Assembly (NCBI GenBank): GCA_048939465.1
Contig: JBHLPL010000057.1
Location: 1 to 12,392 of the forward strand
Origin: Promethearchaeota archaeon
GTDB lineage: Archaea > Asgardarchaeota > Odinarchaeia > Odinarchaeales > JBHLKK01
Length of the DNA: 12,392 nucleotides
Direction: 5' to 3'
The notes under the pieces were generated by a model. The model saw only the letters and a list, made by a program, of their open reading frames with translations, did no database searches and was not told where the DNA came from. This document shows positions 1 through 12,207 of this stretch, piece by piece. A program made the translations under genes and the position numbers. Within the stretch, counting starts at the first letter, position 1. Each line of letters begins with the position of its first letter.

Positions 1-447
1 ACAGGTTGCCTTTACTGTTATCTGGCATGTTCCTATGAGCATTTTGGCGTGTTAAGCCTGTCACTGTCTCATATCAAAATAGTACCTGATGAATCAAAGC
101 CAGGCTATTTCATAGGAATACATTGTGCACATTGTGATGATCCCATATGTGAGGCCTCCTGCCCTGAAGATGCCATTACAAAGGACGAAGAGACCGGGTG
201 GGTTAACATTAACAGAATGAAATGCATCGGATGCAAGACGTGCAACATAATGTGTCCTATTTCCATACCTTGGCGTCACCCTATACAAAAACTCTCCCAT
301 AAATGTGATTTTTGTGAAGGAGATCCCAAATGTGCCAAATTCTGTCCGACTTCAGCCATTATTGTGACAACTAGGCGTGAGGCCGAAGAATACGTAGAAA
401 AGAAACTGGGAATCACGGTGTATGATTCTTACAAAAGCAAGAAATAA
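1..447 (+). CDS. 4x[4Fe-4S] electron-transfer protein, HycB/HydN/CooF/DmsB family (5'-partial)
   Basis: Frame is open from base 1 (ACA GGT TGC CTT TAC TGT TAT CTG GCA TGT = TGCLYCYLAC), so the track start at 49 is internal. Motifs CAHCDDPICEASCP, CIGCKTCNIMCP and KCDFCEGDPKCAKFCP give 15 of the 16 cluster cysteines in the window. Confidence 0.9.
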   Translation, partial: TGCLYCYLACSYEHFGVLSLSLSHIKIVPDESKPGYFIGIHCAHCDDPICEASCPEDAITKDEETGWVNINRMKCIGCKTCNIMCPISIPWRHPIQKLSHKCDFCEGDPKCAKFCPTSAIIVTTRREAEEYVEKKLGITVYDSYKSKK

Positions 448-464
448 GGTGGAAAAGATCCAAA

Positions 465-755
465 ATGAGTAAGGAAACAGAGGAAAAAAAGAGCGTTCCC
501 CTTTACCCTCTGAGAAAAGACAAGGAGTTTATACCAAGTCCTTATCGAGCTGGATTTGAAAGCATACTGGCAATGGCAATGAATAGGGAACTTCCTGATT
601 ACTTCTTAGACGAACGTGATATGCTGGGTCTTGAGGAGATCATCGCAGCCTGGAAAAATGAAAAGGCCCAAAAAGAAATTCAAGAACTGGCAAAAAAACT
701 TGGTCTAGATAAGAAGGTGGCGTTTGACTGGAAAAAGAAGAAGATCAAGTATTAA
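465..755 (+). CDS. Cys-free protein resembling the C-terminal helical region of heterodisulfide reductase subunit C (HdrC-like, no Fe-S domain)
   Basis: 96 aa immediately upstream of hdrB. ERDMLGLEEI...KAQKEIQELAKKLGLDKKVAFDW matches by eye the HdrC tail pattern (R-x-x-LGL-x-E...EV-x-x-I-x-x-x-x-GFD-x-x-V-x-FDW). No cysteines. The ORF is well supported; the family call is tentative. Confidence 0.55.
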   Translation: MSKETEEKKSVPLYPLRKDKEFIPSPYRAGFESILAMAMNRELPDYFLDERDMLGLEEIIAAWKNEKAQKEIQELAKKLGLDKKVAFDWKKKKIKY

Positions 756-768
756 GAGGGTTAAAGCC

Positions 769-1626
769 ATGGCAAAACGACTTGCGTTCTTCTTGGGTTG
801 TGCTCTGCCCTCAGCGCAGCTGTTTGCTGAAGCATCAACCAGATTGAGCTTGCAGGACTTGGGTGTAGAAATTGTTGATCTGGAAGGTGCTACCTGTTGC
901 CCAGACCCTGAAATCTCAAGAACTCTGGGTCCTGACCTATGGATTCGAATGGCTGCCAGAAATCTAGCGCTGGCTGAAGCTGCTAAAGCGGATACTTTTA
1001 CGGTGTGCAATGGGTGTTGGGAAACACTGAGTGAAGCTCAGGAAATGCTCACTAAAGACTCAAAATTACGAGAGGAAGTCAATCGAGATCTAGAGAAGCT
1101 TGGTCTGCGCTATACTGCGAAATTTAAGATATATCACGCAATAGAGGTCTTCCATGATGTTGTCGGTATTGGTGCAGTAGAAAGCATGATTAAGCGCAAG
1201 TTCAAAGGCATAAAACTAGCAATTCAGCCGGGCTGCCGCATCTACAAAAGACCAGAGAAGAATCTTGTAGAGAAAATGCGGAAGTTGGTTCAGGTTTTGG
1301 GTTGCGAAGTAGTCGATCTCCAGCTTGAAAGGCTTTGCTGTGGCGTTCCTTTAATGTATACCGATACTGATTACTCCTTAATGGAGCGAACTAAAGCTAA
1401 GCTTGATGAAATTAGAACCAAATCTGCGCAAGGTATTGTTACTTTTTGTCCTGCTTGTTATGACCGAATGGAAAAAGGTCAGCTAGAGTTAAACACTAGG
1501 GGGGAAAACTACAATATCCCCGTGTTAAGCTATTCTGAGCTTTTGGCGTTCGCATTAGGTCATGAGCCGGACGATTATGGATCATATTTACATAAATTAG
1601 ACTATGCCAAGGTCTTTATGGGGTGA
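769..1626 (+). CDS. hdrB: Heterodisulfide reductase subunit B-like protein (two CCG domains), divergent
   Basis: AFFLGC, ATCCP, TVCNGC, PGC, LCCG and FCPAC supply all ten non-cubane cluster cysteines; also AARNL and NIPVLSYSELLAFALG. ATG 769 after AGAGGG is preferred over TTG 724, which overlaps the previous gene. Confidence 0.9.
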   Translation: MAKRLAFFLGCALPSAQLFAEASTRLSLQDLGVEIVDLEGATCCPDPEISRTLGPDLWIRMAARNLALAEAAKADTFTVCNGCWETLSEAQEMLTKDSKLREEVNRDLEKLGLRYTAKFKIYHAIEVFHDVVGIGAVESMIKRKFKGIKLAIQPGCRIYKRPEKNLVEKMRKLVQVLGCEVVDLQLERLCCGVPLMYTDTDYSLMERTKAKLDEIRTKSAQGIVTFCPACYDRMEKGQLELNTRGENYNIPVLSYSELLAFALGHEPDDYGSYLHKLDYAKVFMG

Positions 1627-3116
1627 AGTATTTGGCCATAGAAGGACTAATACCGTTGATACTTCTGTTGGTGGGTGCGGCTTTAGCCATACCTGTGAAA
1701 ACTGTTTCTGACAAGGCAATGAAAGGTATGCTCGTTACATTGTTTGCAGCAGCATTAGCCTTCAACTCATGGCTAATTTGGAATGTACTGAGTGGAGTCG
1801 CTGAGAGTTATGTAGTGAATGTGTTTGTGGCAAATGGGGCTTCGCTCTTTATTAGCGAAATAATCTTGCTCATTGGTCTCATGTCTCTTTTATATTCTAT
1901 CAAGTTTATGACCGAGGCTCCCCTGAAAACCGGCCTATTCTATGGCGCATTTTCGCTTCTAATGGCAGCGCTGATAGGCACGACACTCGCTGTTGAAGTG
2001 ATTGCACTATACGCGTTCCTAGAAACAATGACCGTGACTTCGGCTGTTCTAGTTTTATATGGGCGGGGAGCATTGCGAGCCACAATGATTTACCTCGTGG
2101 CTGCCATCCTGGGTGCCATACTCGTTCTAGTAGGCGTTTTCTTCATGTACAGTTTTGCCGGTACCACACTCATTACACGTGCGCTCGATTTCCAATTTCT
2201 TACTGATTTTCAAAGACTCCTGATATCGTCCCTTTTCTTTGTAGGCTTCGGGATAAAGGCTGGGATCATACCCTTTGGTTTGCTCTGGGTTCCACCATCG
2301 TATAGTGCTGCCCCGACTCCTATCACCGTGGTTTTAACGGGCATGATAGCAAATGTGGCCATATTCACAATGGCAAAAACGATCTATATCTTTTATCCCC
2401 TTCTAGGCCAGGACGTTTTTACCCTCACAGTATCTAGCATTGGCATCGCAAGCATTCTGGTGGGCGGAATTCTGGCATTCCTCCAAAGCGACATAAAGAA
2501 GTTGCTGGCATATAGTAGTATTTCCCATTATGGATATATCGTTCTCAGTTTGGGTTTGGGAATTGTAAGCTCAGATGCAGGTCTTGCCTTTCTAGGCGTA
2601 GAAGGGGGTTTATTTCATATCCTCAATCATGCTATCTTCAAGAGCCTTCTCTTTCTTGCCATAGGAAACATCATCTTACGTGTAAACACCAAAAACATGC
2701 GAGAAATGGGCGGCCTGTGGAAAAAAATGCCTGTAACACTAATACTATTCCTAATAGGCGTGTTCTCGACGATCGGCCTTATTCCAGGGTTCAATGGCTT
2801 CCAGAGCAAGGAGATAATTCATGAGGCAATTGTGGTATCCGGTATTTCAGTTGTGGAGGGTTTTTCCATATTTGGAATACTTGCATATATTGGAAGTGGA
2901 ATCACAGTCTTATATCTCGCAAGGGCTGTCTGGGAAATATTCTTGAAGAAACCCAAAAACCCGTCTCGCAATAATAAGGTGAAAGAAGCTCCTATAGCCA
3001 TGTTGGTTCCCATAGCGATTTTGGCCGTACTTTGCATTGCAATTGGTGTTTTTCCTGAAATTATCGCAGGTTTCCTGGATCGTGCTTCCGAAGTTTTAGG
3101 AGGATTGATTAGCTAA
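1623..3116 (+). CDS. Antiporter-like proton-translocating membrane subunit (MrpD/MbhH/NuoM-N/HycC family)
   Basis: 497 aa, strongly hydrophobic. Motifs FLE (TM5 Glu), GIKAG...W (TM7 Lys), KKLLAYSSISHYG, FHILNHAIFKSLLFL, GFNGFQSKE and KEAPIAMLVP. GTGA overlap with the hdrB stop. Confidence 0.92.
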   Translation: MKYLAIEGLIPLILLLVGAALAIPVKTVSDKAMKGMLVTLFAAALAFNSWLIWNVLSGVAESYVVNVFVANGASLFISEIILLIGLMSLLYSIKFMTEAPLKTGLFYGAFSLLMAALIGTTLAVEVIALYAFLETMTVTSAVLVLYGRGALRATMIYLVAAILGAILVLVGVFFMYSFAGTTLITRALDFQFLTDFQRLLISSLFFVGFGIKAGIIPFGLLWVPPSYSAAPTPITVVLTGMIANVAIFTMAKTIYIFYPLLGQDVFTLTVSSIGIASILVGGILAFLQSDIKKLLAYSSISHYGYIVLSLGLGIVSSDAGLAFLGVEGGLFHILNHAIFKSLLFLAIGNIILRVNTKNMREMGGLWKKMPVTLILFLIGVFSTIGLIPGFNGFQSKEIIHEAIVVSGISVVEGFSIFGILAYIGSGITVLYLARAVWEIFLKKPKNPSRNNKVKEAPIAMLVPIAILAVLCIAIGVFPEIIAGFLDRASEVLGGLIS

Positions 3117-3457
3117 TGAATGAGGAAGAGAAAGAATCGAAGTTCGAGGGTAAACGGCCAGGCAAGGTGTGGCGAAAGGATGTGCTACCGTTGACTGTGG
3201 CTATGGTAATCCTGACATTGGGAAGTTTAGGATTCATATTTGCCCGAAATTTGCTGGAGTTTTTCCTGCTTGCTGAACTCGTTGCAGTGGCCACTTTCTT
3301 CATATTGTTTAGCGTACTGATACCATCACTGTTTCCAGAAGAGGTGAAGACTGAAGAGATTTTTACTGGCGGTGCTGCTAAGGCTCCATACATAAGTGAC
3401 GATGAGGTCCTCAGACCTGTCATTCCCTTTTTGGAAGAGGAGGAAGATAAAAGCTAG
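3116..3457 (+). CDS. Small membrane protein (2 predicted TM helices), possibly NuoA/MbhI-related accessory subunit
   Basis: 113 aa, TAATG overlap with the previous gene. Two hydrophobic segments followed by KTEEIFTGG, reminiscent of the NuoA TM1-2 loop/MbhI loop, and an acidic C-terminus. Confidence 0.6.
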   Translation: MNEEEKESKFEGKRPGKVWRKDVLPLTVAMVILTLGSLGFIFARNLLEFFLLAELVAVATFFILFSVLIPSLFPEEVKTEEIFTGGAAKAPYISDDEVLRPVIPFLEEEEDKS

Positions 3458-3469
3458 GATGAATAGAAG

Positions 3470-5209
3470 ATGTCCAAAAGGAAAAGAAAGACTAGAAGAC
3501 GCGGTATAGCAGTCGGTATCTTGAATGAATTGAAAAAAATCCTCGGCAAGGATTATTTGGAAGAGTATTCAAGAGGTCAAAATAGAATATATGTGCGAAC
3601 CACATCTGATCATATTGCCGGTATTGTTGAATTCATGTTAAAGAAGGATGCTAGGCTTGCTCACATCACCACGTCTGACTTAGGTCTCCGCGGATTTGAC
3701 GTCCTATATCATTATGCACTAGATCATATTGAGCAAAACCTGCACATAGTCATAAAAGTGGGGGTGGAGAGAGACAAGCCTGAATTACCATCAGTGACTC
3801 CAATAACTTGGCAGGCATCCTATGCAGAGAGAGAGAACATGGATCTAATGGGGGTGAAATTCCTAAATCACCCTGATCCGCGACATTTATTCCTGCCCTA
3901 TGAATGGCCAGAGAAAGTAGAAGGCGGAAAGTTTGATGAGAATCAAGCAGTTGGAAGAACCGATGTTTCAAAAGAAGAAATTCGTGAAAGTGCCGGCAAA
4001 TGGGTCCCGCTCTCTATTACTCCGAAGGATGCCAAGCTCACGTTAATACCAATCGGCCCCTATCATCCAATGCTCATTGAAAGCGAGTATTTCAGGTTAA
4101 AAGTGAATGGGGAAGAGGTGGTTGATGCTGATCTGAAGCTGGGCTTTAACCACAGAGGCATAATGAAATTGGCTGAAGAAAGAACATTCTGGAGAGATAT
4201 ATACCTAGTTGAGAGAACCTGTGGAATCTGCAATGCAACACACTCAACAGCGTACTGTACTGCTGTAGAAGAAATAATGGGGGCAGACCTCCCCGATAGG
4301 GCTAGGTACATCCGAACCCTGATACTGGAGCTTGAACGTCTTCATAGCCATCTCTTGTGGTTCGGGGTTGCTGGAGACCTGATAGGCTTCAAAACACTAT
4401 TCATGTGGGCCTGGCGAGATCGTGAACATGTCTTAGATATTTTTGAAACCATTACAGGCGGTCGTGTCTATCACTGTATGAATGTGATTGGCGGTGTTAA
4501 GCACGATATGAAAGAATCTTGGTATCCGAAAATCGAAAAGGGTGTAAGAATAGCCAAAGATGCTGTCTTGAAGTATATCGAAATGGCTTATGACCATCCA
4601 ATTCTGAAGGCTAGAACTGAAGATATTGGAGTCATGTCAACCGCTGCTGCCAGAGACATGGGAGCGGTTGGCCCGACTGCAAGAGGCAGCGATTGGAAGA
4701 TTGACGCACGATGGTCAGATCATCATGCAGCTTACGCTCCGGAATATACCTCATGGGACCCAGTCGTTGAGTCTGGAGGTGACGTGTGGGCAAGGGTTGT
4801 TGTAAGGCTGAAAGAAATGCTTGTTTCTGCGGAGCTTTGTGATCAGTGTCTGGATGCATTGAAACGTACTGGGGGACCGATCACATCGGAATTGGATTAC
4901 ATTCCTGAGGGTGAAGGAATAGCCAAAACAGAGGCACCTCGGGGGGAATTGTACTATTATGTGGTTTCGGATGGAACTGCAGTGCCTCAAACAGTAAGAA
5001 TCAGAACTCCCAGCTATCGAAATGACGCCTGTCTTCCTTTAATGGTCAAAGGCTATACGCTGGCGGATGCTCCAATCATCATTGGAAGCATAGACCCTTG
5101 CTTCTCTTGCTCAGACAGAATGGTAGTTATAGAAGATGAGAAGACAGGGAACATCAAAAGAGACTTACTGGGAAATCTCGTCAAGAGGTTCAATGAGAGA
5201 AGGATGTGA
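3470..5209 (+). CDS. Group 4 [NiFe]-hydrogenase large subunit 1, fused NuoC+NuoD (HycE-type architecture)
   Basis: NuoC-like N-terminus (ERENMDLMGVKFLNHP), GPYHP, HRG, L1 ERTCGICNATH (4211-4243), EAPRGE, RTPS, L2 DPCFSCSDR (5093-5119) followed by a 29-aa C-terminal extension. Confidence 0.95.
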   Translation: MSKRKRKTRRRGIAVGILNELKKILGKDYLEEYSRGQNRIYVRTTSDHIAGIVEFMLKKDARLAHITTSDLGLRGFDVLYHYALDHIEQNLHIVIKVGVERDKPELPSVTPITWQASYAERENMDLMGVKFLNHPDPRHLFLPYEWPEKVEGGKFDENQAVGRTDVSKEEIRESAGKWVPLSITPKDAKLTLIPIGPYHPMLIESEYFRLKVNGEEVVDADLKLGFNHRGIMKLAEERTFWRDIYLVERTCGICNATHSTAYCTAVEEIMGADLPDRARYIRTLILELERLHSHLLWFGVAGDLIGFKTLFMWAWRDREHVLDIFETITGGRVYHCMNVIGGVKHDMKESWYPKIEKGVRIAKDAVLKYIEMAYDHPILKARTEDIGVMSTAAARDMGAVGPTARGSDWKIDARWSDHHAAYAPEYTSWDPVVESGGDVWARVVVRLKEMLVSAELCDQCLDALKRTGGPITSELDYIPEGEGIAKTEAPRGELYYYVVSDGTAVPQTVRIRTPSYRNDACLPLMVKGYTLADAPIIIGSIDPCFSCSDRMVVIEDEKTGNIKRDLLGNLVKRFNERRM

Positions 5210-6321
5210 GAAAAATGCCTGTGATGATCTTATTAACGATAGCTGCTTGCATAGTTATACCTATTGTTGCATTCTTTGGCGGAGTTCTATGCTGGTTTGC
5301 CATTAGAAAGTTTACTGCTAGGATGCAGGCCAGATTAGGACCTTTGTTGTCTGTCCCGAAACCACTAAGACCTGTAGTCGGTTCCACACGTATACTTCAG
5401 CCTTTCTGGGATATCTTGAAGCTTTTTTATAAAGAAAGCGTAATACCTGCAACTGCCAGAAAGAGACTGTTTGTCACAATGCCCTACGTCGCTTTGATCT
5501 GCACTATTTTGGTCACGTGGTTTATTCCGATAGCTGGGGTATCTCCCTTTGATCAGTTCTCGTTCAGTTTGCTGGTTGTTATGTACCTAATGGTTGTGGT
5601 TCCTCTGGCGTTTGTGGTCGGTGGTGTTGCTAGTTCTTCTCCGTGGGGTGTGCTAGGGAGTTCGAGGGAGGTCAAACTGGTTTTGGCCTATGAAATTCCC
5701 TTTGTGCTAGGTGTGTTTTCAGTTGCGCTGATGGCAGGCTTTCCTGCCGCCAGTGGCGATCTTTTGCCTAGTCTTCCCGGAACACTCTCTCTGGCTGAGT
5801 TGGTAGTCTTTCAGACCGCGCATCAGCTGAACTTTTTTGGAGTTCTGCTGCCAGCATGGTTCATCATCCTCAATCCGTTCTCTGCAGCTGCGGTCTTCCT
5901 TAGCTTAATTGGGAAAATTGGACTGAAACCTATGGATATTTCAGACGCAGAAGTTGAAATAGTGGCTGGAGCTTACACTGAATATAGCGGGAAGCTACTA
6001 GGAATCCACGAAATGGTGCACACATTCCTACTGTTCATAACAACGACACTGTTCGTGGATCTCTTTCTCGGGGGAGGTGCAGTTCGCGTACCATTCTTTG
6101 GAATACCCTCATTAGTGTGGTCCATAATCGTTTACGCAATAATGATGGTGATAACTCTTCTTGTCCTGTCAATTGTAAATACGGCAAATCCTAGGTTTAG
6201 AATCGACCAAGCCTTCAAATGGTATCTGAAGCTTCCTCTGGCATTGGCAATAATTGGGCTGGCTTGGACCTACATTTTTGCCAGCTCTATGATTAACGTT
6301 CCTGGTATAGGTATAACATAG
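5206..6321 (+). CDS. NuoH/HycD/MbhM-like membrane anchor subunit 1
   Basis: ARMQARLGP, LQPFWDILKLFYKE, SREVKLVLAYE, DISDAEVEIVAGAYTEYSG, PRFRIDQ. GTG 5206 overlaps the upstream stop; ATG 5215 is an alternative start. Confidence 0.93.
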   Translation: MRKMPVMILLTIAACIVIPIVAFFGGVLCWFAIRKFTARMQARLGPLLSVPKPLRPVVGSTRILQPFWDILKLFYKESVIPATARKRLFVTMPYVALICTILVTWFIPIAGVSPFDQFSFSLLVVMYLMVVVPLAFVVGGVASSSPWGVLGSSREVKLVLAYEIPFVLGVFSVALMAGFPAASGDLLPSLPGTLSLAELVVFQTAHQLNFFGVLLPAWFIILNPFSAAAVFLSLIGKIGLKPMDISDAEVEIVAGAYTEYSGKLLGIHEMVHTFLLFITTTLFVDLFLGGGAVRVPFFGIPSLVWSIIVYAIMMVITLLVLSIVNTANPRFRIDQAFKWYLKLPLALAIIGLAWTYIFASSMINVPGIGIT

Positions 6322-6333
6322 GAGAAATGAATA

Positions 6334-6945
6334 ATGGTTAAAGGAAAACTCAAGCTTCTGAAGGAGGCAATCAAGAGCCTGTTTAATCCGGTCACCATAG
6401 GCTATCCTGCCGGAGACCCCGACCTGGATTATGCAGAACCACACTTTGGGACAGAATCCAAATACAGCACCGTAGCTGAAGAACTCCGTGGCAAACATAA
6501 ATGGGATCCTGAGAAGTGCACTGGCTGCGGAGCTTGCAGTTCCTGTTGTAGTAGTCTCTGCCTTCTTTACGAAGACAGGGATGATGGAAAACGTCATCTC
6601 TGGGTCCATCTAGGTAGATGTATTTTCTGTGGTCGATGTGAGTACGTATGTCCTGATGATGCCCTTGACTTGACACCCGAATTTGAACTAAACTATGAAG
6701 GAGACAAAGAGAGCGAAGAATCATTTGTTAGGCATGAGGTAGAACTCGAGGTATGCAGCAATTGTGGACACTATGTTGCTCCAAAGCTGCAAATTGAGAG
6801 ATACTCGCAAAAAGTTCTGGATGATATTCATCCTGCTGTCAAGGATGCAGTCAAAGAGGACTTGGAGAAGATTTCTAAGCTCTGTGTGGACTGCAGAAGA
6901 AAGCTTGCTTATGAGCAAAATCTTCACACTCGGAAATACTACTGA
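6334..6945 (+). CDS. NuoI/HycF-like 2x[4Fe-4S] subunit with extra C-terminal four-Cys site
   Basis: TIGYP...LRG, CTGCGACSSCC, CIFCGRCEYVCP, plus CSNC and CVDCRR. GGAG upstream. Confidence 0.92.
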   Translation: MVKGKLKLLKEAIKSLFNPVTIGYPAGDPDLDYAEPHFGTESKYSTVAEELRGKHKWDPEKCTGCGACSSCCSSLCLLYEDRDDGKRHLWVHLGRCIFCGRCEYVCPDDALDLTPEFELNYEGDKESEESFVRHEVELEVCSNCGHYVAPKLQIERYSQKVLDDIHPAVKDAVKEDLEKISKLCVDCRRKLAYEQNLHTRKYY

Positions 6946-6956
6946 AGGAGGATGGA

Positions 6957-7403
6957 ATGATGGGTCTAAAACAGAAAGCAAGAGCTTACTCACCATGGGT
7001 ATTCCACGCACACTGCGGTGGATGCAACGGCTGTGATATAGAAATAGCTGCGCTTTTTAACCCGAGATTTGATGTAGAGAGGTTTGGTATTCAACTCAAA
7101 AATAATCCCCGGCATGCAGACATACTAGTTGTAGATGGTATACTTCCAAAACAAACAGCCTACTTCCTAAAACGTGTGTATAATCAGACTCCTGACCCCA
7201 AAGCTGTAGTTGCAGTAGGTGCTTGTGCAATTACCGGTGGGGTATTTGCTAGTGATGATGAAACTAGGCCTAATTACTCCCAAGCAGGACCTACTGACAG
7301 GGTACTTCCAGTTGATGTTTATGTTCCGGGTTGTCCGCCGAAGCCCGAAGCAATAATAGAAGGCATAGTACGAGCGATAATAGCATTGAGTAAGAAAAAA
7401 TGA
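6957..7403 (+). CDS. Group 4 [NiFe]-hydrogenase small subunit 1 (NuoB/HycG-like)
   Basis: HycG-type CGGCNGCDIE, ERFG, PRHAD, GAC, VPGCPP. GGAGG at 6947-6951. Confidence 0.95.
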   Translation: MMGLKQKARAYSPWVFHAHCGGCNGCDIEIAALFNPRFDVERFGIQLKNNPRHADILVVDGILPKQTAYFLKRVYNQTPDPKAVVAVGACAITGGVFASDDETRPNYSQAGPTDRVLPVDVYVPGCPPKPEAIIEGIVRAIIALSKKK

Positions 7404-7511: not shown

Positions 7512-7525
7512 AGGTGTTGAGGAAT

Positions 7526-8140
7526 ATGCATCTCAATTTGAAGGAGGGTGAATACCTAATTAGATTTGCAAGAAAGAGTATAGAAACCTATTTGACAACC
7601 GGAGAAAGACTAAAGACCCCCGAAGATGCCCCGAAGATACTCTACGAAAAACGCGGTGTATTCGTTACTCTCCAGAGAATCCTTGAAGATGAGAAACGAC
7701 TCAGAGGTTGCATAGGTTTTATTGTCCCTCAATATTCGCTTATCGAAGCCACGTCTCACTCTTCCATCAGTGCGGCCGTAGATGACCCGAGGTTTCCACC
7801 CGTGGAATTTGATGAGTTGAAAAGAATCGCAATTGAAGTAAGTGTTCTGACTCCTGCCCAACTGGTGAAGATCAGTAGGCCTGAAGACTACCTATCGAAA
7901 ATAAAGGTCGGTCGTGATGGTCTAATTGCAAAGCTCGGGTGGAAAACCGGAGTGTTACTACCTCAGGTACCGGTAGAATATGGCTGGAATGAGGAGAAAT
8001 TTATGAGGCAAACATGCATAAAGGCGTTTTTGCCGCAGGATGCATGGAAAGAAGACGGTTTTGAATTATATTCCTTTCAGTCCCAAATCTTCGAGGAGAA
8101 ATTCCCTAACGGAGAAGTGGAAGAACGCTTCATAACTTAG
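7526..8140 (+). CDS. AMMECR1-domain protein (archaeal type)
   Basis: RGVFVTL, LRGCIG, AAVDDPRFPPV, EVSVLT, GRDGLI, LLPQVPVEYGW. ATG 7526 follows GAGG and is preferred over GTG 7514. Confidence 0.93.
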   Translation: MHLNLKEGEYLIRFARKSIETYLTTGERLKTPEDAPKILYEKRGVFVTLQRILEDEKRLRGCIGFIVPQYSLIEATSHSSISAAVDDPRFPPVEFDELKRIAIEVSVLTPAQLVKISRPEDYLSKIKVGRDGLIAKLGWKTGVLLPQVPVEYGWNEEKFMRQTCIKAFLPQDAWKEDGFELYSFQSQIFEEKFPNGEVEERFIT

Positions 8141-8239: not shown

Positions 8240-8566
8240 ATGAGTTTGATACTTGCTGTGCCTATTGCGTTCATAATATGTCTGATAGCAGTCGGATTTA
8301 TTTATCTTCTCGGAAGAAAAATGGCTCCTCCAAGCAGGAAGAAGGGTGAAGCTGTGTTAACGTATGCTTGCGGCGAAGACATAGATCAAGAGAAAATCCA
8401 GTTCAAGGTAAACTGGCTTTACTATGCGATCTACTTCGTCATCTTCGACATAATTGCATTTACGCTTTCTCTATCCATTCAGCTTGGTGTACTCGAATCG
8501 GTCCTTATGGCGGTTACGTACTCATTCGTAGCACTCGTGGCAATACTAGTACTCCTAAGACGATAG
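8240..8566 (+). CDS. NuoA/FpoA-like 3-TM membrane subunit
   Basis: TM1, loop TYACGE, then YYAIYFVIFDII and a third hydrophobic helix; 108 aa. Confidence 0.85.
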   Translation: MSLILAVPIAFIICLIAVGFIYLLGRKMAPPSRKKGEAVLTYACGEDIDQEKIQFKVNWLYYAIYFVIFDIIAFTLSLSIQLGVLESVLMAVTYSFVALVAILVLLRR

Positions 8567-8579
8567 AGGTGAATCAATA

Positions 8580-9032
8580 ATGGGATTATTAAAAAGGCTG
8601 GTTGACTGGTCAAGGCGCAAATCACCCTGGCTTCTCCACTTCAACTCTGGAAGCTGTAATTGCTGTGATATTGAGATTTTGGCATCTTTAATGCCCAGAT
8701 TTGACCTAGAACGATTTGGAGTTCTTCTTAAAGGCAGTCCGAGACATGCGGACGTACTTGTATGCACAGGTCCTGTTACGTTACAACAAGAAAAACGCTT
8801 AAGGAGGATCTATGAACAAACACCGGCCCCTAAGTTCGTTATGGTGGTAGGAACGTGTGGAAGTACAGGAGGAGTCTTCAGAGGCTGTTATCATACTCAC
8901 AAAGGTATTGATAATATTATTCCGGTCGATGTCTATGTTCCCGGCTGCCCTCCAAGACCTGAGTCTATACTGTTTGGGGCCGTGAAACTTCTTCAGAAAC
9001 TAGAAGCAGTTCAAAAAGGTGAAAAAGCATGA
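8580..9032 (+). CDS. Group 4 [NiFe]-hydrogenase small subunit 2 (NuoB/MbhJ-like)
   Basis: SPW, GSCNCCDIE, ERFG, SPRHAD, TGPVT, GTC, VPGCPPRPE. Confidence 0.95.
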   Translation: MGLLKRLVDWSRRKSPWLLHFNSGSCNCCDIEILASLMPRFDLERFGVLLKGSPRHADVLVCTGPVTLQQEKRLRRIYEQTPAPKFVMVVGTCGSTGGVFRGCYHTHKGIDNIIPVDVYVPGCPPRPESILFGAVKLLQKLEAVQKGEKA

Positions 9033-10762
9033 CTGTAGAAACTGAAATGGGTGAGGAAGTACTTCTAAAAGAATTCCCTCAAGAGTGGGAAATTGTCCAA
9101 TCGCTGCGGGAGGCACTGGGAGATAAATTTGTGGCCAGCAAAATTCCGCGGAAGCGCAGAGTCTACGTCTCGGTTACTGAGGAAGCCCATCGTGAAGCCG
9201 CCAAACAACTCAAGGCAATGGGTATATGGTATACTCCCACCATCGTTGCTTTGGATCTCAAGGATAAATTTGAAGTCCTCTTCCAGTTTTTTGATAAAGA
9301 GAGAAATGTACATATTGCAATAAGAACTCCGGTTTCGAAAGATAAGCCTGAGCTGGAAACGATAACGGATCTCTTTCCCGGAACCATATTCTATGAGCGT
9401 GAAGTTCATGACTTATTTGGGATTGTTTTCAGAAACCATCCCAATTTAGTGAAACTGCTACTGGCAGATACTTGGCCTGCAGACGAATACCCTCTAAGAA
9501 AGGATTGGAAACCCTCGGCTAAGAAAGTCAAGTCCCGAAGAAAAATACCTCTGGTTACAGCGGGAGAATTCCTTATTGAAGTTGGGCCTCAGACTCCAAC
9601 GCTGAAAGAACCAATGAACTTCGAAGTCATTGCAGACGGAGAAGTTGTGGTTGATATAATTCCTCACTTGGAGTATAACCACCGAGGTATTGAAAAGGCC
9701 ATGGAGCAACGGACTTTCACCCAAGGAATTTACCTTAGTGAACGCGTCTGCGGTATATGCAGTCAACCTCACGCATTCACATTCTGTAGTGCTGTTGAGA
9801 GGTTGCTGGACGTCGATGTACCAAGAAGAGGACAGTACATCAGAACTATGGTTTATGAGATGAACAGAATCCACAGCCACCTTTTGTGGGTAGGCGTTGC
9901 TGCACATCTGATTGGCTGGGATACCTTATTCATGTATACATGGCGTGACCGTGAGGTTATTTTGGATATGACAGAGCTTATTACCGGTGGCCGCTTAACT
10001 GGTGCAATAAACACGATAGGCGGAGCCAGAAGAGACATAAATGACGATCAAATACACAAGCTTCGCAAGGGCTTAGATGTCCTGGAAGAACGTACAAGAG
10101 CGTACAAGAAAATTGCTCTAAATGAAGATACACTGATAAAAAGATGTCTTGGCGTAGGCATTATGAAGCCTGAGCTAGCCAGGAACTTTGCTGCGGTTGG
10201 ACCGACCATCAGGGGATCCGGAATAAAAGCTGATCTTCGTTGGGACGATCCGGAACATGGGTGTTATGATGAGCTTTCAGATGTATTCACTCCTGCAACA
10301 TCGGACTTATGTGACGTTGCTGGAAGGCTAATCGTTCGTGTAGATGAAACATTAGAATCAGTCAACATGATTCGCTGGATCCTTGACCATTTGCCAAGTG
10401 GACCAGTGAGAAAAAGAGTGCCCAGAAGGGTTCCAAGGAATGAGGCTGTCGGAAGAACTGAAGCTCCTCGAGGGGAAGTTTATTATTACATGATGTCTAA
10501 TAACACGGACAAGCCTGAACGTGTAAAGATAAAAACACCGACGATAGCAAACATTCCTGCGTTCGTTGAATCCACAAAGGGACTTTACATTGCAGACTTC
10601 GTGATCAACTTTGGCAGTATTGATCCATGCATCGCGTGTACCTGCAGAACAACAATTACCGATATAAGCCACCCGAGAAATCCAAAGCGACGTGTTATGT
10701 CGCATGAGGAATTGAGGAAGTATGGCATAGACTGGTATGAAGACCGAAAATGGAGGAAATAA
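9029..10762 (+). CDS. Group 4 [NiFe]-hydrogenase large subunit 2, fused NuoC+NuoD
   Basis: EREVHDLFGIVFRNHP, YPLRKD, HRGIEK, L1 ERVCGICSQPH (9740-9772), EAPRGE, KTPT, L2 DPCIACTCR (10622-10648) plus a 37-aa extension. ATGA overlap with the small subunit gene. Confidence 0.95.
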   Translation: MTVETEMGEEVLLKEFPQEWEIVQSLREALGDKFVASKIPRKRRVYVSVTEEAHREAAKQLKAMGIWYTPTIVALDLKDKFEVLFQFFDKERNVHIAIRTPVSKDKPELETITDLFPGTIFYEREVHDLFGIVFRNHPNLVKLLLADTWPADEYPLRKDWKPSAKKVKSRRKIPLVTAGEFLIEVGPQTPTLKEPMNFEVIADGEVVVDIIPHLEYNHRGIEKAMEQRTFTQGIYLSERVCGICSQPHAFTFCSAVERLLDVDVPRRGQYIRTMVYEMNRIHSHLLWVGVAAHLIGWDTLFMYTWRDREVILDMTELITGGRLTGAINTIGGARRDINDDQIHKLRKGLDVLEERTRAYKKIALNEDTLIKRCLGVGIMKPELARNFAAVGPTIRGSGIKADLRWDDPEHGCYDELSDVFTPATSDLCDVAGRLIVRVDETLESVNMIRWILDHLPSGPVRKRVPRRVPRNEAVGRTEAPRGEVYYYMMSNNTDKPERVKIKTPTIANIPAFVESTKGLYIADFVINFGSIDPCIACTCRTTITDISHPRNPKRRVMSHEELRKYGIDWYEDRKWRK

Positions 10763-10763
10763 G

Positions 10764-11810
10764 ATGGTGCTGGAGGCAATTCTCGACATAGTCCAAATCT
10801 TACTTTTCCCGGGAATACTCTTTTGCCTAACTTTGGCACTCTTTTATTCGTGGATAGATAGGAAATATCATGCTGACCTGCAAAATCGAATGGGACCTAC
10901 ATACACTGGTTGGCGAGGGATACTGCAGCCTTTTGCAGACTTCATAAAACTTATGGCAAAAGAAGATATTACGCCGGCAGCAGCAGATAGGAGAAGCTTT
11001 GCCGCTGTACCAGCCGTGATGCTGGCGGTTCCTTTCCTAGGTCTTCTATTCATTCCGATTAGCAATATAGTTGGGATAATTAGCTTTCCTGGCGATATTG
11101 TGTTTCTGATGTTCTTATCGACCATAATCGCAATTTTGATCTTCCTTGCAGGATGGTTCTCAACGAACGTATTCAGTGACATTGGAGCTACAAGAGCTGT
11201 GCTGCAGCTGATAGGATACGAGATACCGTTTATGATAGCGGCATTCTCTCCGGCTATTCTGGCTGGTTCACTTACACTTGCTCAGGTAATCGAATACCAG
11301 GCCACCAACGGCTTGATGCTTTTCCAATTCCCGGCTATATATCAAAGCATTCCTATGTGGGTTGCTTTTGGTGTCTATATGATAGCACTGATGGCTGAAC
11401 TTGAGAAAATACCTTTAGATATTCCGGAAGCAGAAACCGAAATTGTTGCGGGATGGCAGACTGAATATTCGGGCAAGAAATATGCATTCTTGGTTCTGTC
11501 GAATGATCTTCATATGCTATTTGGAGCAGGTCTTGTGGTAACCTTGTTCTTAGGAGGACCCTTTGGAATCGAAAAACTGCCAGGGCTGGCCGGCCTAAAT
11601 GCGTTTATTTCGACGACACCCATAATAAGAGAGCTTTGGTACACAGGATGGTTCATATTGAAGGCTGCTATTGTAGTGCTGGTAATTTCAAACATCAGAA
11701 CTCTATTTGCGCGATACAGAGTCGATCAGATGATTCGCGGATCGTGGAAATATCTTGCACCAACCGCCTTGATAGGAGTGATATTGATTCAACTCTTCAG
11801 TTTAATCTAA
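10764..11810 (+). CDS. NuoH/HycD/MbhM-like membrane anchor subunit 2
   Basis: QNRMGP, GILQPFADFIKLMAKE, LIGYE, DIPEAETEIVAGWQTEYSG, ARYRVDQ. ATG 10764 follows GGAGG (10752-10756) and is preferred over track start 10737. Confidence 0.94.
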   Translation: MVLEAILDIVQILLFPGILFCLTLALFYSWIDRKYHADLQNRMGPTYTGWRGILQPFADFIKLMAKEDITPAAADRRSFAAVPAVMLAVPFLGLLFIPISNIVGIISFPGDIVFLMFLSTIIAILIFLAGWFSTNVFSDIGATRAVLQLIGYEIPFMIAAFSPAILAGSLTLAQVIEYQATNGLMLFQFPAIYQSIPMWVAFGVYMIALMAELEKIPLDIPEAETEIVAGWQTEYSGKKYAFLVLSNDLHMLFGAGLVVTLFLGGPFGIEKLPGLAGLNAFISTTPIIRELWYTGWFILKAAIVVLVISNIRTLFARYRVDQMIRGSWKYLAPTALIGVILIQLFSLI

Positions 11811-11817
11811 GAAGGTG

Positions 11818-12207
11818 ATGTTAATGCCTTTCCCCGGAGCTATGCAAGCAGAATTGTTGAGACATCTCACAAAAAAGAGAGCAACTCTGCTCTATCCATT
11901 TGAGAAGCTGGATTTACCCGAGGCGTATAGAGGTCGATGGTCTCACGATATGGCTAAATGCACCGGCTGTGGTCTCTGTGCAAAGGATTGTCCAAGTGAA
12001 GCCATACAGCTAGTTGAAACAGATATAACGCCAGGAGGCAGATACCCCGTTTGCTACCTGAGTAGATGCATGTTTTGCGCTCAGTGTCAAGATACTTGCC
12101 CTACAGGTGCTATCCAGCTAACAAACGAGTATGAGCTCGCTGATTATCAGAAAAGAATCATCGATAGCAACGTACCCGAAGGATTTAGATACGAAAAGAG
12201 TAAATAA
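11818..12207 (+). CDS. NuoI/MbhN/EchF-like 2x[4Fe-4S] subunit 2
   Basis: ATLLYPFEK...YRG, CTGCGLCAKDCP, CMFCAQCQDTCP. Start could be GTG 11815, ATG 11818 or ATG 11824 (AGGTGA Shine-Dalgarno favours 11824). Confidence 0.93.
   Translation: MLMPFPGAMQAELLRHLTKKRATLLYPFEKLDLPEAYRGRWSHDMAKCTGCGLCAKDCPSEAIQLVETDITPGGRYPVCYLSRCMFCAQCQDTCPTGAIQLTNEYELADYQKRIIDSNVPEGFRYEKSK

Follow-up and report, generated by a model that had tools for sequence, protein, structure and literature searches.

The window analysed here is the entire 12,392-nt contig JBHLPL010000057.1 (G000:C109) from a metagenome-assembled genome (MAG) of a Promethearchaeota archaeon (1.96 Mb, 91% complete), and the gene under study is a short open reading frame (ORF) at 465-755 on the forward strand, placed between a polyferredoxin gene and an hdrB-like gene in an operon for a [NiFe] hydrogenase. 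The ORF has an ATG start and encodes 96 aa with 0 Cys; a spacer of 17 nt (448-464) with a GGTGG Shine-Dalgarno-like element lies upstream, and 13 nt separate its stop from ATG 769 of the hdrB-like gene, the stop of which overlaps the start of the antiporter-like gene (GTGA at 1623-1626), indicating translational coupling. A preliminary description of this DNA had placed a cysteine-free 96-aa ORF in the hdrC position and had held that no remnant of a ferredoxin domain exists; both statements were borne out, the ORF being directly upstream of the HdrB-like gene and the 17 nt leaving no room for such a remnant. The following features were assigned:

1-447 (+): four-[4Fe-4S] polyferredoxin gene, 3' part; cytoplasmic, HycB/AorA/DmsB type; PF13247 Fer4_11 E 4e-14
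465-755 (+): 96-aa cysteine-free gene of the putative tether; NuoC C-terminal motif followed by the HdrC C-terminal arm, the HdrB-clasping part
504-521 (+): codons of Y14-P-L-R-K-D19, the conserved NuoC/Nqo5 C-terminal motif
531-749 (+): segment homologous to the HdrC arm; matches HdrC residues ~107-184; profile E 1.8e-14
769-1626 (+): HdrB-like catalytic subunit, 285 aa; PF02754 E 7.5e-23; 5odc_B E 4.5e-48
1623-3116 (+): antiporter-like subunit (NuoL/M/N, HycC-like); PF00361 E 2.6e-46
3116-3457 (+): small NuoK-like subunit; PF00420 E 0.0037, weak and under the Pfam cutoff
3470-5209 (+): fused NuoC-NuoD (HycE-like) [NiFe] large subunit; 7z0s_E (HycE) E 1.2e-84
5206-6321 (+): NuoH/HycD-like membrane subunit; PF00146 E 8e-59
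6334-6945 (+): HycF-like two-cluster Fe-S subunit; NF009053 (formate hydrogenlyase Fe-S subunit) E 8.5e-29
6957-7403 (+): NuoB/HycG-like small subunit; PF01058 E 4.9e-35

The 96-aa gene was compared with its orthologue in a related MAG (L003; 83% protein identity), in which the gene order of the operon is repeated; dN (nonsynonymous rate) 0.079, dS (synonymous rate) 1.41, dN/dS ~0.06, and therefore a coding gene under strong purifying selection. The closest named relative is a MAG labelled Ca. (Candidatus) Hodarchaeota, of the same GTDB genus as the genome of the window. An independent mangrove-metagenome contig (9.5 kb) covers window 1-3200 with 3 substitutions and 0 gaps; a second strain, seen in two other runs, has 4 differences inside ORF 465-755 (at 551, 602, 668 and 722), all in third codon positions; and no indel was found in window 1-3200 in any run compared. 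RNA datasets covering window 1-3200 were not listed, which has no bearing on expression. For the hdrB-like gene a start at TTG 724 (15 codons more, reaching into the end of the arm gene) was rejected, as the homologues begin at the position of ATG 769 (MAKR/MTKR).

The 5' end of the operon was recovered from contig C49 (L002, G000:C49:1-1598), which shares window 1-98 as an end-to-end overlap (one mismatch) and is therefore contiguous with the window. C49 supplies the first ~27 codons of the polyferredoxin (N-terminus …LLFRQELCTGC), and a divergent gene for a YdjM-like membrane protein precedes it there; the operon thus starts with the Fe-S gene, and no hdrA lies upstream.

Joined across the two contigs, the polyferredoxin holds four CxxCxx(xx)CxxxC(P) motifs with 16 Cys between them, the first encoded on C49 and the other 15 in the window; no twin-arginine signal was seen in its N-terminus. 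A full-length homologue searched against the PDB matched 8c0z_C (E 6e-27), 6x6u_B and HycB 7z0s_B (E 2.8e-14); the solved relatives are AorA, the WOR5 Fe-S subunit, HycB, FdnH and NrfC, and HdrC was absent from all 31 PDB matches. The four-cluster protein of DmsB type named in the preliminary description is thus a polyferredoxin of the HycB/AorA/DmsB type, with no likeness to the ferredoxin domain of HdrC. Chain 9mqx_E, also a good match, was considered as part of a solved HdrB-hydrogenase complex and set aside, no 9mqx chain being among the matches of HdrB or of the large subunit.

The large subunit (3470-5209) carries RTCGICNATH and DPCFSCSDR with all four Ni-ligand Cys kept; its closest solved relative is HycE 7z0s_E, and the Fe-S subunit (6334-6945) is closest to HycF. 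The marks of an HdrB-associated group 4 hydrogenase of the Ehd/Ehe/Drh type (L1 RxCGxCxxxH and L2 DPCxxCxxR, HdrB with both CCG motifs, antiporter-like subunit) occur together in this one cluster. Downstream, at 8240-12207, a second hydrogenase module was noted (NuoCD with YPLRKDW and Ni ligands; unusual L2 motif DPCIACTCR), and the contig stops before any pump subunit of that module; an AMMECR1-family gene at 7514-8140 stands between the two modules and has the same place in the Ca. Hodarchaeota MAG (L003 17014-17628).

Homology to the HdrC arm and the HdrB partner

Canonical HdrC has two [4Fe-4S] clusters (CxxCxxCxxxC motifs) in an N-terminal ferredoxin domain, and its helical tail embraces HdrB. 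Scans of the 96-aa protein against curated families (Pfam, NCBIfam) gave nothing significant; HTH_Tnp_1 (E 0.056) and SepA (E 0.016) were judged chance matches. A single-sequence phmmer search of the PDB placed at the top HdrC 5odc_C, residues 138-183 (the last 46), against query residues 51-95 with E 0.012. The same program, run over 1.84 billion representatives, returned 13 proteins shorter than 101 aa, one with 58 aa and the other 12 with 88-100 aa, as well as four longer ones whose C-terminal end gave the match. From an alignment of 20 members a family profile was built and run against the PDB (hmmsearch); 8rvu_c, 8rvv_C, 5odc_C and 9sfi_E were matched at E 1.8e-14 to 2.8e-12, and 7bkb_C extends the range for HdrC chains to E 2.4e-6. 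Every one of these alignments covers HdrC residues ~107-184; the best match other than HdrC had E 0.16. The HdrC ferredoxin domain (residues 1-106, two [4Fe-4S]) has no counterpart in the 96-aa protein, the profile aligning only from ~107, and the 20-member alignment has no conserved Cys column. The resemblance had been described, by eye, as limited to the C-terminal helices of HdrC, and the profile agrees.

The fold was predicted by AlphaFold2 (AF2). The model from the single sequence was unusable (predicted local distance difference test, pLDDT, 55.6), and the model from the alignment was used instead (pLDDT 80.9; first 20 residues 52-70); it has four helices (25-37, 45-53, 66-79, 81-85) and a terminal beta hairpin that ends in the FDWKKKK motif. 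The protein has an acidic N-terminus and a basic C-terminus. The Foldseek comparison that had been proposed as a check was carried out against the PDB: the six best matches are all HdrC chains (probability 1.00; template-modelling score, TM, 0.52-0.62, query-normalised; root-mean-square deviation 2.3-2.4 Å; 64-75 columns), and the seventh match has a probability of 0.07. Residues ~23-95 of the 96-aa protein are a homologue of the cluster-free C-terminal arm of HdrC.

The neighbouring HdrB-like protein (769-1626) has two CCG domains with both non-cubane [4Fe-4S] motifs intact; C11, C43, C44, C80, C83, C156, C190, C191, C227 and C230 are invariant in 18 homologues. TIGR03288 scored 201.6 bits on it, under the 345-bit cutoff. 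For prediction of the complex the HdrB alignment was combined with the arm alignment in three runs with three controls, and the interface score ipSAE was read against a mark attained by 58 of 80 solved complexes and by 2 of 110 mismatched pairs. The HdrB-arm pair gave ipSAE 0.84 vs 0.00 for the best control, with at least 83% of contacts common between runs and a partner pLDDT of 73-75. In the predicted interface arm residues 23-85 are in contact with HdrB residues 9-64, 107, 111 and 269-274, and the YPLRKD segment lies outside it and is left free. The prediction supports, and does not show, binding of the 96-aa protein to the adjacent HdrB. It is in line with the earlier suggestion of an adaptor that docks HdrB, a clasp of the neighbouring HdrB being predicted.

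The genome of the window also holds three full-length hdrC-hdrB pairs elsewhere (HdrC 194-203 aa; G000:C56:2653-7763, G000:C152:6891-8401), two of them in tandem with an hdrA-like gene after them, so that the 96-aa protein is a specialised paralogue and not the sole HdrC of the organism. In other Asgard genomes three matches of canonical HdrC type contain one in-frame TGA each (G003:C54:10314-10526, G002:C1:165210-165422, G345:C239:5097-5321), which may be selenocysteine codons or mark broken genes.

NuoC terminal motif, fused relatives and distribution

After an acidic/basic leader the 96-aa protein reads LYPLRKD, and in the family columns P15 and L16 are invariant and K18 is nearly so, in sequences down to 28% identity. 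In the second NuoCD of the window the corresponding YPLRKDW was aligned to HPLRKDY, which is the reading both in E. coli NuoCD (7p61_C) and in T. thermophilus Nqo5 (2fug_5). The PF00329 core (the ERExxDxxG alpha/beta domain) gave no match in the 96-aa protein, which has only the terminal YPLRKD in common with NuoC. The four longer family members (P0016, P0017, P0019 and P0020) are PF00329 NuoC domains that run straight into the arm; the junction reads LPYEWPEGKYPLRKP and the arm follows.

Within the large subunit of this operon the NuoC domain ends …LPYEWPE (aa 145-147 = nt 3902-3910) and is followed by a linker without YPLRKD; the match to PF00329 reaches profile position 110 of 124, vs 118-122 in the fusions and in the second NuoCD. 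NuoC is present in 10 of the 11 free-arm loci, either as a separate 143-aa protein or fused to NuoD, and in all ten it ends LPY(E/A)WP without the motif; the free arms start LYP(L/W)RK. Read from its sequence, the 96-aa protein is chimeric: it joins the last motif of NuoC to the arm of HdrC. The earlier claim of an HdrC reduced to its tail therefore stood as regards homology to the arm; it did not stand as a description of a merely trimmed HdrC, and "split-off end of a NuoC-HdrC-arm fusion" is the better wording, because the first ~20 residues carry YPLRKD.

Fifteen loci were compared (a scan of the Asgard phylum, metagenomes, and one MAG that NCBI names Candidatus Methanomethylicota), and four gene orders were distinguished. 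In 15/15 hdrB comes right after the arm, whether this is free or joined to NuoC, so that the homologues of the same length next to hdrB for which a search had been proposed do exist (~90 aa); every locus long enough to show its neighbours has a Fer4_11 polyferredoxin and group 4 hydrogenase genes. From 83% to ~30% identity the ~90-aa form is kept; it occurs in the Candidatus Methanomethylicota MAG, in several metagenome contigs and, within the Asgard phylum scan, in seven or more family codes. A full-length HdrC at this place in close relatives, which would have spoken for truncation, was not met with; down to ~30% identity there is the ~90-aa form or the fusion to NuoC. Some 93-aa members are labelled "heterodisulfide reductase subunit C" by JGI and hypothetical by NCBI. 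Taken together, these results support the earlier reading of ORF 465-755.

In the HdrB tree the hydrogenase-linked HdrBs stand apart from the ordinary HdrBs of the genome (support 92/93). HdrBs that go with free arms fall into a single clade (99/97), next to which those paired with fusions make an unresolved grade. One free-arm clade beside fused forms fits a single fission of a NuoC-arm fusion, without proving it.

Two related clusters have a GcvH gene beside them. In L008 (JGI 3300035198 contig, 2125-15026) a NuoC-arm fusion operon and a divergent free-arm operon lie together, the latter followed by GcvH (PF01597). In L035 (1985-15577, Candidatus Methanomethylicota MAG) an Ehe-like cluster was found with GcvH directly upstream of the polyferredoxin, a 92-aa arm and hdrB; HdrA-like, short HdrC-like, HdrB and SdhA-like genes flank the cluster. 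The disulfide of a lipoyl protein is a candidate substrate for this Ehe-like cluster.

Proposed mechanism and alternatives

The 96-aa protein is probably a cofactor-free, two-part tether of an HdrB-linked group 4 [NiFe] hydrogenase resembling formate hydrogenlyase (FHL), with the HycB-type polyferredoxin as relay. Residues ~23-95, the HdrC arm, would wrap around the neighbouring HdrB at its N-terminal CCG half, as in HdrABC, and residues ~12-20, the YPLRKD strand, would complete in trans the truncated NuoC domain of the hydrogenase. Binding of this strand to the large subunit, which would fix HdrB on the peripheral arm of the complex, is suggested by the complementarity of the motifs and by the covalent fusions in relatives. 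The relay role of the lost HdrC clusters would pass to the separate four-cluster polyferredoxin, which would link the HycF-like/NuoB-like clusters to the non-cubane clusters of HdrB, the latter standing in place of FdhF of E. coli FHL. The complex may couple oxidation of H2 to reduction of a disulfide, or the reverse, with ion translocation. How the strand docks on NuoCD, which way the electrons pass, in which direction the reaction runs and what substrate is used are all inferred. Somewhat short of an even chance is given to a further step, by which the free arm would be one part of a subunit that is now split in trans. A NuoC-HdrC-arm fusion in an ancestor would have been cut just before the terminal strand of NuoC, and the 96-aa protein would with one end complete the truncated NuoC domain by strand complementation and with the other clasp HdrB.

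Several points weigh against the tether as set out here. The protein and its complex are known from sequence and prediction, and the HdrB-arm score may echo 5ODC-like structures and not be independent support, since HdrBC complexes have already been solved. Docking of YPLRKD on NuoCD is argued from motif complementarity, and YPLRKD could be no more than what an earlier fusion has left behind. The proposed electron path, which would require contact of the polyferredoxin with HdrB and cluster distances short enough for transfer, is taken from family relationships. The fused forms make up an unresolved grade in the HdrB tree, so that the tree does not prove fission over fusion.

Alternatively, the 96-aa protein could be a clamp that stabilises HdrB and nothing else, YPLRK being a leftover of a former NuoC fusion and HdrB being held by the polyferredoxin alone. 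This is consistent with a predicted interface confined to residues 23-85 and with the low confidence of the model in the first 20 residues (pLDDT 52-70); however, P15 and L16 are invariant and K18 is nearly so at 28% identity, which argues for a function of the YPLRK motif, the partner NuoC is without exactly YPLRKD in every free-arm operon that has NuoC (10), and the arm is covalently joined to NuoC in other lineages, so that this explanation is regarded as unlikely. Only a slim chance is left for a factor of assembly or maturation that binds apo-HdrB transiently (e.g., while the non-cubane clusters are inserted) and has left once the complex is mature: the protein is small and cofactor-free, has an acidic N- and a basic C-terminus and is predicted to bind HdrB, but the homologous HdrC arm is permanent in solved HdrABC complexes, and the covalent fusion to NuoC, a structural subunit, in relatives argues for a stoichiometric structural role.

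The genes at 1-447 and 465-755 are adjacent, 17 nt apart, and in the order ferredoxin then tail, as would be expected of a split HdrC, the upstream Fe-S protein being the detached and expanded ferredoxin domain and the 96-aa ORF the tail. That explanation is highly improbable in view of the Fe-S protein, a four-cluster Fer4_11 type with no HdrC among its 31 PDB matches, and of the fused architectures, in which an antiporter gene stands between polyferredoxin and arm, the latter being joined to NuoC and not to a ferredoxin. Recent truncation of a full-length hdrC, a pseudogene remnant or an assembly artefact has its short length in its favour and nothing else; conservation of the ~90-aa form from 83% to ~30% identity across lineages, dN/dS ~0.06, agreement of independent assemblies without indels and the mere 17 nt upstream leave it with next to no credit.

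Known systems and significance

The 96-aa protein shares with HdrC of the soluble HdrABC (5ODC, 8RVU, 9SFI, 7BKB) the sequence and the predicted fold of the arm, the gene position directly upstream of hdrB and the predicted binding of HdrB; unlike HdrC it is without a ferredoxin domain (0 Cys) and carries a NuoC motif at its N-terminus. The operon of the window differs from HdrABC in being without hdrA, and the partner is a membrane hydrogenase. With NuoC/Nqo5, the 30-kDa subunit of complex I, the protein has the terminal [HY]PLRKD in common, and the fusions go on from this motif into the same arm; in contrast, the alpha/beta domain of NuoC is absent from it and is found in this operon as part of the NuoC-NuoD fusion, where it stops short of the motif. 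Counterparts of HycE, HycF, HycB, HycG, HycD and HycC of E. coli FHL-1 (7Z0S/7Z0T) are all present in the operon of the window; FHL-1 differs in having the molybdoenzyme FdhF where HdrB and the tether stand here, and FHL has no counterpart of the tether.

Group 4 hydrogenases associated with HdrB have been predicted from genomes: Drh in Methanocella and Ehd in Methanomethylicia (PMC9723716; PMC6046458), and Ehe (Culexarchaeia), Ehg and Ehd-like forms (PMC9723716), with GcvH beside Ehe remarked in the Culexarchaeia paper (PMC9723716). Ehg was reported to be expressed in a cultured Methanonezhaarchaeia strain (PMC12700198), and groups 4l/4q with a "peripheral heterodisulfide reductase domain" were described for Asgard archaea (bioRxiv 10.1101/2024.07.04.601786). 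Support for these complexes consists of genome-based proposals and, for Drh and Ehg, of data on transcripts or expression (PMC9723716, PMC6046458, PMC12700198); an enzyme assay of such a complex is reported in none of these three papers. Ehd/Ehe/Drh-type hydrogenases have the same core as the operon of the window (group 4 large subunit with Ni ligands, HdrB, antiporter-like subunit, Fe-S protein), and the Ehe-like cluster of the Candidatus Methanomethylicota MAG, which also has GcvH, HdrA2B2C2 and an SdhA-like gene, contains a 92-aa family member. The papers on these enzymes differ from the present description in writing "HdrBC" (PMC9723716; PMC6046458; bioRxiv 10.1101/2024.07.04.601786), and the Asgard preprint (bioRxiv 10.1101/2024.07.04.601786) reports Hdr-bearing complexes for deep-branching Asgard classes; the nearest named MAG of the window's genus is labelled Ca. 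Hodarchaeota. In the open full texts that were searched, no description was found of a cluster-free HdrC, of an HdrC with a NuoC motif or of a NuoC-HdrC fusion. The class of HdrB-linked group 4 [NiFe] hydrogenases had already been predicted, also for Asgard archaea, and the probable tether of NuoC motif and HdrC arm is the new detail.

Membrane hydrogenases linked to HdrB (Ehd, Ehe, Drh, Asgard 4l/4q) recur in models of how uncultured archaea conserve energy. If their "HdrC" is a cofactor-free tether, electrons would have to reach HdrB through the HycB-type polyferredoxin, and the predicted wiring changes. The family profile is a candidate marker that could set this enzyme class apart from soluble HdrABC in annotation. 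No new kind of system is established; side by side, the fused and split forms make a clear example of probable domain fission between two respiratory modules. Should the subunit prove to be split in trans, it would be a portable "plug" by which a disulfide reductase is bolted onto an ion-pumping hydrogenase without the clusters of HdrC, in the Asgard and Methanomethylicota lineages examined, and a respiratory or H2-evolving thiol/disulfide complex would be present in a relative of the eukaryotic ancestor.

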